A stretch of 64,000 nt of DNA from the NCBI RefSeq assembly GCF_003334385.1, contig NZ_QOWN01000001.1, one strand, 5' to 3'. This stretch comes from Escherichia coli (GTDB taxonomy: Bacteria; Pseudomonadota; Gammaproteobacteria; Enterobacterales; Enterobacteriaceae). This document shows positions 12,211 to 60,406 of this stretch, piece by piece (position 1 is the stretch's first letter; the number at the start of each line of letters is the position of its first letter). Both the position numbers and the translations under genes were made by a program. Below the pieces are notes generated by a model. That model worked only from the letters and a program-made list of their open reading frames with translations. It did not search any database and was not told the origin of the DNA.

Positions 12211-13074
12211 TTATTCGATGTTCTGAATCTGCTCGCGCATCTGCTCAATCAACACTTTCAGCTCGATGGCGGAGTTTGTCACTTCGGCATTGATAGACTT
12301 CGACGCAAGAGTGTTCGACTCGCGGTTGAACTCCTGCATCATAAAATCCAGACGACGACCAACCGCTTCTTTTTTCTTCAGAATGTTGTAGGTCTCTTTG
12401 ACATGCGCTTCGAGGCGATCCAGTTCTTCGGCAACGTCAATTCGTTGTGCCAGCAGAACCAGTTCCTGCTCCAGACGGTTGTTTTCCAGTTGCACCTGAG
12501 CATCTTCCAGCTTCGCGACCAGACGCTCACGCTGCCATTGCAGGATTTCCGGCATATGGGAGCGGACTTTGACCACTTCGGCGGTGACGCCTTCCAGACG
12601 CTGCTCGATCAATGCTTTCAGTGCCTGACCTTCGGTTTCGCGCGCGACAATAAAGTCGTCCAGCGTACCATCCAGCGCCGCGAGAATTTCAGCGGCAATG
12701 GCGTCAAGATCCTGCTCCTGGGCTGCCATCACGCCCGGCCAGCGTAGAATATCAACCGGGTTGATTTCCCCTTCGTCACTCTGCATTTTTACCCAGTTCG
12801 CGGCAGTTACCAGCTGTTTAGCCAGTTTTTCGTTGAGGATCAGCTCACCTTGCGCGCTAACATCTGGCTCATAGCGCAGGGTACATTCCACTTTACCGCG
12901 CGTCAGGCGAGAACGAATACGCTCGCGAACGACAGGTTCAAGGCTACGGAACTGCTCCGGCAGACGAAAGTAAGTTTCCAGATAACGCTGGTTTACCGAG
13001 CGCATTTCCCAGGTTGCGCTCCCCCATTCACCCTTGATTTCACGCCGGGCGTAGGCGGTCATACTGCGGATCAT
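12211..13074 (-). CDS. yicC: UPF0701 protein YicC
   Basis: 287-aa ORF recognised as YicC. Confidence 0.9.
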   Translation of the reverse strand: MIRSMTAYARREIKGEWGSATWEMRSVNQRYLETYFRLPEQFRSLEPVVRERIRSRLTRGKVECTLRYEPDVSAQGELILNEKLAKQLVTAANWVKMQSDEGEINPVDILRWPGVMAAQEQDLDAIAAEILAALDGTLDDFIVARETEGQALKALIEQRLEGVTAEVVKVRSHMPEILQWQRERLVAKLEDAQVQLENNRLEQELVLLAQRIDVAEELDRLEAHVKETYNILKKKEAVGRRLDFMMQEFNRESNTLASKSINAEVTNSAIELKVLIEQMREQIQNIE

Positions 13075-13200
13075 AGACGTTCCTGTTTATAAAAGGAGAG
13101 GTGGAAGGATTATAGCCATCGATGCCTTGTCAGGATAGGAATAACCGCCGGAAGTCCGTATAATGCGCAGCCACATTTGTTTCAAGCCGGAGATTTCAAT

Positions 13201-13917
13201 ATGCGTCCAGCAGGCCGTAGCAATAATCAGGTGCGTCCCGTTACCCTGACTCGTAACTATACAAAACATGCAGAAGGCTCGGTGCTGGTCGAATTTGGCG
13301 ATACCAAAGTGTTGTGTACCGCCTCTATTGAAGAAGGCGTGCCGCGCTTCCTGAAAGGTCAGGGCCAGGGCTGGATCACCGCAGAGTACGGCATGCTGCC
13401 ACGTTCTACCCACACCCGTAACGCTCGTGAAGCGGCGAAAGGTAAGCAGGGTGGACGCACAATGGAAATCCAGCGTCTGATCGCCCGTGCTCTTCGCGCG
13501 GCAGTAGATTTGAAAGCGCTGGGTGAGTTCACCATTACGCTGGACTGCGACGTGCTTCAGGCTGATGGTGGCACGCGTACCGCGTCGATTACGGGTGCCT
13601 GCGTGGCGCTGGTAGATGCGCTACAGAAGCTGGTGGAAAACGGCAAGCTGAAAACCAATCCGATGAAAGGGATGGTAGCCGCAGTTTCTGTCGGAATTGT
13701 GAACGGCGAAGCGGTTTGCGATCTGGAATACGTTGAAGACTCTGCCGCAGAGACCGACATGAACGTAGTGATGACCGAAGACGGGCGCATCATTGAAGTG
13801 CAGGGGACGGCAGAAGGCGAGCCGTTCACCCATGAAGAGCTACTCACCTTGTTGGCTCTGGCCCGAGGGGGAATCGAATCCATTGTAGCGACGCAGAAGG
13901 CGGCGCTGGCAAACTGA
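13201..13917 (+). CDS. rph: Ribonuclease PH, full-length (rph+)
   Basis: ORF track frame from 13177; start at ATG 13201 ([20 protein letters not shown]...), 238 aa ending ...[14 protein letters not shown]; stop TGA 13915-13917 immediately before the attenuator hairpin. Confidence 0.93.
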
Positions 13918-13924
13918 TTTTTAA

Positions 13925-13950
13925 GGCGACTGATGAGTCGCCTTTTTTTT
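13925..13950 (+). terminator. pyrE attenuator (intrinsic terminator hairpin plus T-tract) between rph and pyrE
   Basis: Stem GGCGACT / AGTCGCC with loop GATG, followed by TTTTTTTT at 13943-13950. Confidence 0.8.
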
Positions 13951-13982
13951 GTCTGTAGAAAAGTAAGATGAGGAGCGAAGGC

Positions 13983-14624
13983 ATGAAACCATATCAGCGC
14001 CAGTTTATTGAATTTGCGCTTAGCAAGCAGGTGTTAAAGTTTGGCGAGTTTACGCTGAAATCCGGGCGCAAAAGCCCCTATTTCTTCAACGCCGGGCTGT
14101 TTAATACCGGGCGCGATCTGGCACTGTTAGGCCGTTTTTACGCTGAAGCGTTGGTGGATTCCGGCATTGAGTTCGATCTGCTGTTTGGCCCTGCTTACAA
14201 AGGGATCCCGATTGCCACCACAACCGCTGTGGCACTGGCGGAGCATCACGACCTGGACCTGCCGTACTGCTTTAACCGCAAAGAAGCAAAAGACCACGGT
14301 GAAGGCGGCAATCTGGTTGGTAGCGCGTTACAAGGACGCGTAATGCTGGTAGATGATGTGATCACCGCCGGAACGGCGATTCGCGAGTCGATGGAGATTA
14401 TTCAGGCCAATGGCGCGACGCTTGCTGGCGTGTTGATTTCGCTCGATCGTCAGGAACGCGGGCGCGGCGAGATTTCGGCGATTCAGGAAGTTGAGCGTGA
14501 TTACAACTGCAAAGTGATCTCTATCATCACCCTGAAAGACCTGATTGCTTACCTGGAAGAGAAGCCGGAAATGGCGGAACATCTGGCGGCGGTTAAGGCC
14601 TATCGCGAAGAGTTTGGCGTTTAA
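13983..14624 (+). CDS. pyrE: Orotate phosphoribosyltransferase
   Basis: ORF track frame from 13968; start at ATG 13983 ([15 protein letters not shown]..., 213 aa). Confidence 0.95.
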
Positions 14625-14631
14625 AGAAACT

Positions 14632-14655
14632 CGCCGGATGAAAAGTCATCCGGCG
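14632..14655. terminator. Hairpin between convergent pyrE and slmA (probable bidirectional terminator)
   Basis: Perfect inverted repeat CGCCGGATG-aaaagt-CATCCGGCG. Confidence 0.5.
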
Positions 14656-14660
14656 TCATA

Positions 14661-15257
14661 TTACTGCAACTGTGCCGCAATTAGCGGCCAGCGGGCGTCA
14701 AAATCATCCGTCGGGCGGTATTTAAATTCGCTGCGGACAAAACGTGACAGCATACCTTCACAGAAGGCCAGGATCTGGCTTGCCAGCAGGGTTTCATCGG
14801 TGGTGTAACCTTCACCCTCACGCATTCTCTTTTCACGCAATACCTGGCGCAGCTGCGCTTCAATACGCTCGAACAGCTGGTTGATGCGCCCTTGCAGGCG
14901 ATCCTGTTCAAACATTAGCGCATGACCAGTGAGGATGCGGGTCAGGCCAGGATTACGCTCACCAAAACCGAGAAGCAGCAACACAATCAGACGCAGGCGC
15001 GCTGTGGTGTCTTTCTCATCTTTCAGAATCAGGTTGATGCGAGTAATCAGGCTATCTTCGATAAACTCAATCAGGCTATCGAACATGCGGGTCTTACTGG
15101 GGAAGTGGCGATACAGTGCCGCTTCGGAAACGCCGACAGAGGCGGCCAGTTTTGCCGTCGTGATACGTTGGCTTCCATCGCTGGATTCCAGCATCAGCGC
15201 CAGAGACTGAAGTATTTCCTCGCGACGGTTCCTTTTCGCAGTTTGTTTTTCTGCCAT
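14661..15257 (-). CDS. slmA: Nucleoid occlusion factor SlmA (TetR family)
   Basis: ORF track frame 14661..15299; start at internal Met [20 protein letters not shown] (198 aa). Confidence 0.92.
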
Positions 15258-22687: not shown

Positions 22688-23808
22688 TCGTGGCGTTTTG
22701 TTTATATAAATATTTTCCATTTGGTGGGCTTCAACGTGACTTTATGCGCATTGCATCAACAGTTGCCGCACGGGGCCACCATGTTCGGGTATATACACAG
22801 TCGTGGGAAGGCGATTGCCCGAAAGCATTTGAGCTTATTCAGGTGCCAGTTAAGTCCCATACCAACCATGGACGCAATGCAGAATATTATGCCTGGGTAC
22901 AAAATCATCTCAAAGAGCATCCCGCAGATCGCGTTGTTGGGTTTAATAAGATGCCTGGCCTGGATGTTTATTTTGCCGCTGATGTTTGTTACGCCGAGAA
23001 AGTTGCGCAAGAAAAAGGTTTTTTATATCGTTTAACATCACGATATCGCCATTATGCCGCATTTGAGCGAGCGACTTTCGAGCAGGGTAAATCGACGAAA
23101 CTTATGATGCTGACCGATAAGCAAATCGCCGATTTCCAGAAGCATTATCAAACTGAACCTGAACGTTTTCAAATTCTTCCTCCCGGTATTTATCCGGACA
23201 GAAAATACAGTGAGCAAATCCCAAACAGCCGTGAAATTTATCGCCAGAAAAATGGCATAAAAGAGCAACAAAACTTATTACTGCAGGTTGGATCAGATTT
23301 TGGCCGTAAAGGTGTAGATCGCTCAATTGAAGCTTTGGCATCGTTACCGGAATCATTACGTCACAATACGCTTTTATTTGTTGTTGGTCAGGATAAGCCG
23401 CGAAAATTTGAAGCGCTGGCAGAAAAACTCGGCGTGCGGAGCAATGTGCATTTCTTCTCCGGTCGCAATGATGTGTCAGAATTAATGGCAGCCGCTGATT
23501 TATTACTGCATCCCGCTTATCAGGAAGCCGCGGGTATCGTTCTTCTAGAAGCGATCACTGCTGGGTTACCTGTTTTAACAACAGCGGTATGTGGGTACGC
23601 GCATTATATTGCGGATGCCAATTGTGGAACGGTCATCGCTGAACCTTTCTCTCAGGAACAATTAAATGAAGTTTTACGTAAAGCGCTAACTCAGTCGCCA
23701 TTGCGAATGGCCTGGGCGGAGAATGCTCGCCATTATGCCGATACTCAGGATTTGTATAGCTTGCCAGAAAAAGCCGCGGATATCATTACAGGTGGTTTAG
23801 ATGGTTGA
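22684..23808 (+). CDS. waaG: LPS core glucosyltransferase I
   Basis: 374-aa ORF; 4-bp overlap with waaQ stop. Confidence 0.95.
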
Positions 23809-59968: not shown

Positions 59969-60406
59969 TCATTCATCGATGCACTTTATAGAATCATCAA
60001 TGGCCATAATAGTACTATTAACTCTCAATTTTATATTTTTATCATCACTACAAATATTAACTGAATTTATATCAATGATTTTTTTATTCTTATCTTTTAT
60101 TTTATTTACTGTTTCAATGCAATCAGCGGCAAGTTGGAGTGGATTTAGATTTTTCAGATATGGTCTTATGATCTTTCCCTTACTTAATAAATAGCATGTA
60201 TAGGATTCGGAAAGTCCAGCATCTATTTTGTACCTCATTATATTAGATAAGGATGTGAGAAATTCCTTGTTATCATTCGCAGCCATATATGCCAGTCCGA
60301 GTTCAGCCTCTGCGGCCTTACAGGCAAAATAGCTTAGTGAACACGCTTTTCGTCCCTCTTTAGTACTGGCTGATATTAGTGCCCATAATATTGCTTTGTC
60401 TGCCAA
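59969..60406 (-). CDS. Hypothetical protein, candidate immunity partner of the decayed third Rhs C-terminal cassette
   Basis: 145-aa frame with TTG start and no in-frame ATG upstream; AT-rich; sits directly downstream of the decayed toxin remnant. Confidence 0.4.
   Translation of the reverse strand: MADKAILWALISASTKEGRKACSLSYFACKAAEAELGLAYMAANDNKEFLTSLSNIMRYKIDAGLSESYTCYLLSKGKIIRPYLKNLNPLQLAADCIETVNKIKDKNKKIIDINSVNICSDDKNIKLRVNSTIMAIDDSIKCIDE

Follow-up and report, generated by a model that had tools for sequence, protein, structure and literature searches.

The rph-pyrE operon of Escherichia coli ends its first gene just ahead of an attenuator, and this pyrE attenuator was reportedly described as UTP-sensitive and translation-coupled by Jensen in 1993 and in earlier work, to go by papers that cite those studies. 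The UTP dependence of pyrE attenuation comes from the slowing of RNA polymerase in a U-rich stretch. The wild-type form of the locus, with RNase PH encoded by an intact rph (protein accession WP_001247097.1) followed by the attenuator, is found in many natural isolates whose DNA is identical throughout rph, the attenuator and the beginning of pyrE. The rph+ allele of K-12 (C600, DH1, DH5alpha, DH10B, MC4100/BW2952, NCM3722) has the same 238-codon frame, the same run of five G residues (G5), the same stop and the same attenuator. In rph-1, the allele of the K-12 W1485 descendants MG1655 and W3110, the run has only four G residues (G4). In PMC5379014, rph-1 is reported only in W1485, MG1655 and W3110. 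With rph-1, according to PMC4166923 and bioRxiv 10.1101/162834, translational coupling at the attenuator is lost and pyrE is poorly expressed.

We compared with these alleles a stretch of 64,000 nucleotides of E. coli DNA (assembly GCF_003334385.1, contig NZ_QOWN01000001.1), called here the window, to which all positions refer unless otherwise stated. We are highly confident that its rph-pyrE locus is the ordinary wild-type E. coli operon, carried by a natural strain that, for all its closeness to K-12, does not belong to K-12. Nothing in the sequence speaks against this reading. Everything at the locus is already known and nothing in it is novel: in the natural isolates 160-11H1 and 52F4 rph lies at the same coordinates with the same protein accession, and nothing differs from them within 13101-14000. 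The K-12 rph+ allele departs from the window by an ATC codon for Ile216 in place of ACC for Thr216 (position 13847). The rph-1 allele of MG1655 shares the gene, the operon and an identical attenuator with the window, but has G4, the tail ESNPL, a product of 228 amino acids and Ile216, where the window has G5, 238 amino acids and Thr216.

The intact RNase PH gene occupies 13201-13917 on the plus strand. Direct reading and the open reading frame list agree on a frame of 238 sense codons from the ATG at 13201-13203 to the TGA at 13915-13917; the program-made list places the start eight codons further upstream, at a TTG at 13177, and the annotation of identical genomes places it at 13201. The product scores 380.3 bits against the RNase PH equivalog model TIGR01966 of NCBIfam (cutoff 141.5), and its residues 2-236 align with profile positions 1-235 of 236; the C-terminal segment missing from rph-1 is part of the alignment. 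This match, full-length and above the curated cutoff, places the product in the RNase PH family and indicates that the frame is not a chance open reading frame. In strain 160-11H1, whose DNA is identical at rph, the gene is annotated at the same coordinates as WP_001247097.1. The sequence-only reading, which had described rph as intact over 238 codons with its stop at 13915-13917, is thus upheld by the direct read, the open reading frame list and the family model.

Downstream on the same strand lies the attenuator-controlled pyrE (13983-14624), encoding an orotate phosphoribosyltransferase of 213 amino acids (240.6 bits to TIGR00336) and annotated as such in the identical region of 160-11H1. 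Between the convergent pyrE and slmA, a G+C-rich palindrome of 10 bp (CGCCGGATGA...TCATCCGGCG, 14632-14655) scores as a minus-strand terminator and probably ends the pyrE transcript too. Upstream of rph, a consensus scan for a sigma-70 promoter returned no convincing match by the tool's criteria. A perfect TATAAT can be seen by eye at 13159-13164, 37 nt upstream of the rph start, and the same scan found no partner -35 hexamer for it at standard spacing.

The pyrE attenuator is an intrinsic terminator at 13923-13950 on the plus strand. Its core stem, GGCGACT-GATG-AGTCGCC at 13925-13942, is extended by two further A-U pairs to 13923-13944, giving a stem of 9 bp whose arms, AAGGCGACT (13923-13931) and AGTCGCCTT (13936-13944), form a perfect inverted repeat (100% complementary) around the loop GATG; a run of eight T residues follows at 13943-13950. 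Minimum free energy RNA folding, a terminator scan and an inverted-repeat search each recovered this hairpin, in agreement with the earlier placement of a hairpin at 13925-13942 followed by a T-tract. By direct reading, a seven-base spacer, TTTTTAA (13918-13924), separates the rph stop from the G+C core of the stem; the distance of 8 bp given previously is the offset from 13917 to 13925 and corresponds to these seven intervening bases. The interval from the rph stop to the pyrE start thus contains the G+C stem and T run expected of the attenuator, and the stop codon is near enough to the stem for a ribosome there to reach it; alignment shows the attenuator sequence to be identical to that of MG1655. 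Based on the literature and on this identity with the characterized element, read-through in the window would be expected to respond to UTP and to depend on translation of the end of rph. An Rfam scan of 12900-14800 placed no curated family over the pyrE attenuator. The only hit in that interval was RyhB, which fell on the hairpin (13905-13950) and scored 24.5 bits, where the gathering score is 55 (E = 0.1); we set it aside as sub-threshold and most likely a chance likeness of terminator stem-loops.

Published work, together with what is generally known of ribosome footprints, suggests how rph translation would control this hairpin. According to the established model, low UTP would slow RNA polymerase over the U-rich end of the leader, so that the ribosome finishing rph would be close behind it and would cover the 5' arm of the hairpin; termination would then be suppressed and pyrE transcribed. 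When UTP is high, the polymerase would outrun the ribosome, the hairpin would form and transcription would stop. A ribosome covers roughly 12-15 nt downstream of the A-site codon. With the TGA at 13915-13917 in its A site, a ribosome would be predicted to overlap the 5' arm of the stem (13923-13931) and, if it follows the polymerase closely, to keep the hairpin from forming; one halted at the TAG of rph-1 would probably reach only to about 13900 and could not interfere with the hairpin. The rph-1 change would thus, by stopping translation 29 nt earlier, put the hairpin out of reach, leaving pyrE under-expressed and RNase PH truncated. Published observations agree with this picture: the premature stop of rph-1 is stated to impede transcription/translation coupling at the pyrE attenuator (bioRxiv 10.1101/162834), and mutations that shorten the distance from the rph stop to the attenuator are described as adaptive (PMC4166923).

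The alignment with MG1655 (NC_000913.3), in which rph is b3643, annotated as a truncated RNase PH at 3815863-3816549 of that genome, locates the rph-1 site precisely. Over the rph-pyrE region at 13101-14000 there are exactly two differences, 898 of the 900 window positions being identical. The first is in the G run at 13867-13871 (plus strand, codons Gly223-Gly224), which is the site of the rph-1 deletion; both the alignment and the list of differences give G5 in the window and G4 in MG1655. The second is at 13847, where the window has C and MG1655 has T, so that codon 216 (13846-13848) is ACC (Thr) in the window and ATC (Ile) in MG1655, as it is in K-12 strains of both the rph-1 and the rph+ type. 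Loss of the G shifts the MG1655 frame from codon 224 onward, and the translation reads ...ARGESNPL before the stop, with ESNPL as the new tail; the protein, which ends in LLILLALARGESNPL, has 228 amino acids. Mapped onto the alignment, the premature stop is a TAG at 13886-13888 of the plus strand, out of frame in the window; it lies 29 nt upstream of the wild-type stop and 37 nt from the hairpin core, as against 8 nt for the wild-type stop. The defining lesion of rph-1, one G-C pair lost from a G run that precedes the wild-type stop by about 43-48 bp, with a product of 228 amino acids, is absent from the window. The earlier account of rph-1 as a 1-bp deletion near the 3' end that truncates RNase PH was accurate, and the check proposed with it, an alignment of the rph 3' end with MG1655, found the single-base difference rather than identical sequences.

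Two direct repeats of 10 bp, GCAGAAGGCG, were found by the repeat search at 13810-13819 and 13893-13902 (plus strand). Because of the extra G, they are spaced 83 nt apart in the window and 82 nt apart in MG1655. Laboratory evolution of MG1655 is reported to yield, recurrently, a pyrE/rph deletion of 82 bp with a 10-bp repeat on either side (PMC4166923), and the window's repeats are the flanks of that deletion.

A fifth G in a homopolymer could in principle be an error of sequencing or assembly laid over a true rph-1 sequence, as such runs are error-prone on some platforms and the window has three other single-base indels relative to MG1655. We consider this explanation extremely improbable. 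G5 is the state of about 97% of complete E. coli genomes; in the window it co-occurs with the linked, non-K-12 Thr216 variant 20 bp away and restores a product that matches the RNase PH model over its full length, C terminus included. Moreover, G4 is known only from K-12 backgrounds, and the window is not one.

The allele frequencies behind these statements come from a census of 5,426 complete E. coli genomes. A 39-nt probe for the G4 form, which is unable to seed on G5 genomes, matched 169 of the 5,426, and nearly all of the 60 listed among those 169 are named K-12 laboratory strains or derivatives (MG1655, W3110, J53, EMG2 and others). The K-12 rph+ form, an 88-nt sequence with ATC for Ile216 together with G5, was matched exactly in 180 genomes; of the 60 listed, a few have labels that say nothing of their origin, and the names or serotypes of the rest point to K-12 laboratory strains or derivatives, with C600, DH1, DH5alpha, DH10B, MC4100, BW2952, NCM3722 and RR1 among the matches listed. 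The form found in the window, with ACC for Thr216 and G5 in the 88-nt 3' end, has exact matches in 1,022 genomes of diverse lineage and source, including O157:H7. Over the 900-nt region, at least 40 wild isolates, obtained from humans, pigs, poultry, cattle and water, are 100% identical to the window. Within this census Ile216 acts as a marker of K-12, and the window does not have it. Codon 216 (Thr or Ile) and the length of the G run together make a small diagnostic, which in the census separated K-12 rph-1, K-12 rph+ and non-K-12 E. coli.

Some census records also touch on the history of rph-1 itself. An assembly labelled EMG2 (NZ_CP099588.1), nominally the wild-type K-12 F+ lambda+, and several J53 assemblies carry the G4 rph-1 allele, which bears on the disagreement in the literature as to whether W1485 was the sole origin of rph-1 (PMC5379014). 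The Ile216 and G5 (rph+) form is matched exactly by eight records that bear the label 'K-12 MG1655' (NZ_CP010438.1 to NZ_CP010445.1). They are presumably repaired or evolved derivatives, and they show what a genuinely repaired K-12 allele looks like.

Beyond rph, the window aligns with MG1655 3765751-3829748 as a single collinear block of 64,001 columns at 99.956% identity. Its gene order, with a K-12-type waa core cluster and rhsA-yibA-yibJ-yibG, had been described as K-12-like from the sequence alone, and that description holds. Because wild isolates have the same layout, it is not diagnostic of K-12. The further claim drawn from it, that the DNA comes from a strain of K-12 type that is rph+, or else from a repaired derivative, is contradicted by Thr216, by the even spread of the differences from MG1655 and by the wild-isolate alleles found at 15 of them. 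There are 28 such differences (24 SNPs and four single-base indels), distributed evenly between 1482 and 62428 and not concentrated near rph. In a four-way alignment of the window, MG1655, 160-11H1 (chicken meat, Japan) and 52F4 (calf, Switzerland), the window carries the wild-isolate allele at those 15 of the 28 sites, both rph sites included, with MG1655 as the odd one out; 160-11H1 and 52F4 both agree with the window at 14 of them, and at the remaining one, an indel at 60078, only 52F4 does. The other 13 of the 28 are private to the window in this comparison. K-12-specific alleles, such as ATC at rph codon 216, are thus missing from the window.

These results bear directly on a possible origin of the window in a laboratory strain of a K-12 lineage outside W1485 (C600, DH1, DH10B, MC4100, NCM3722) that never acquired rph-1. 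Many K-12 strains are indeed rph+, and the window's collinearity with MG1655 and its near identity extend through the waa cluster and the rhsA region. Such an origin is nevertheless very unlikely, since every listed K-12 rph+ genome has ATC (Ile216) and the window has ACC. The density of differences also argues against it: 28 in 64 kb is high compared with the 258 SNVs that are reported to separate RR1 from MG1655 genome-wide (PMC5379014). In the search with the middle segment, ER1709, MG1655, C600 and J53 score alike, at 46110 bits, and below wild isolates; identical scores across K-12 lineages suggest common K-12-specific alleles that the window lacks. With codon 216 and 14 other K-12-specific sites against it, descent from a never-mutated K-12 strain is effectively refuted.

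Repair of rph-1 in a strain of the MG1655/W3110 type, by a +1 reversion in the G run, by engineering or by transduction, has precedent in the eight rph+ 'K-12 MG1655' records above. It is also documented in evolution experiments, where exact reversion of rph-1 (TCC to TCCC at MG1655 coordinate 3815879) is recurrent according to bioRxiv 10.1101/162834. A reversion, however, would keep Ile216 (ATC) and all other K-12 alleles; the differences in the window reach far beyond any repair patch and are not centered on rph. Transduction from a wild donor would leave the 13 private variants and the even spread over 64 kb unexplained. The chance that the window is a repaired derivative is therefore negligible, the even distribution of the differences being what refutes it.

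We conclude that the intact gene is neither a repaired nor a never-mutated K-12 allele: rph+ is the ancestral, species-wide state. The window's rph is best read as ancestral in a close non-K-12 relative because the window has wild-isolate alleles and shares Thr216 with 1,022 genomes, as against Ile216 in the listed K-12 rph+ genomes. As to which strain this may be, we read both its probable status as natural rather than laboratory and its identity from allele sharing. In three segment searches of the 5,426 complete genomes, wild isolates from humans, livestock, food and water rank above K-12 strains every time, no genome matches a window segment exactly, and the best hits, all wild isolates, have about 3, 7 and 3 residual differences as fitted from bit scores. 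By the same bit-score arithmetic, the complete genomes that match best appear to lack the 13 private variants. We give roughly even odds to an origin in a natural strain very closely related to K-12 that has yet to be sequenced. If that is so, the strain would offer a near-isogenic natural comparator for K-12 with rph+ and Thr216, and its rph-pyrE locus would still be ordinary.

For this locus it is the reference strain MG1655 that is the exception and the rph of the window that is the norm, and annotation transferred from MG1655 would wrongly predict a truncated rph. Judging from the allele, a strain that carries it should have normal RNase PH activity and normal pyrE regulation, free of the partial pyrimidine starvation that MG1655 shows in minimal medium.

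The individual sites of difference may be of use beyond rph. The private variants lie at 23686, 24384, 24389, 30361, 33838, 36394, 37056, 42440, 43095, 44613, 51477, 56587 and 62428. Six of the ten private coding variants examined are nonsynonymous (waaP A195V and V197L, which are 5 bp apart, waaF D329N, htrL N109K, gpmM L466Q and lldP G293S). The sites at which MG1655 stands apart from the window and the wild isolates alike, namely 1482, 11062, 19708, 29613, 36519, 39167, 53055, 53206, 55021, 59194, 59582 and 61831 together with 13847 and 13867 in rph, could serve as markers of the K-12 lineage in this region; the changes on the K-12 side include waaZ T20I, htrL R151H and mtlD L103Q. At 60078, in the yibV/Imm57-family region downstream of rhsA, the window, like 52F4, has no T where MG1655 and 160-11H1 have one, and the gene overlapping this position is annotated as a frameshifted Imm57-family immunity protein in both 160-11H1 and 52F4.
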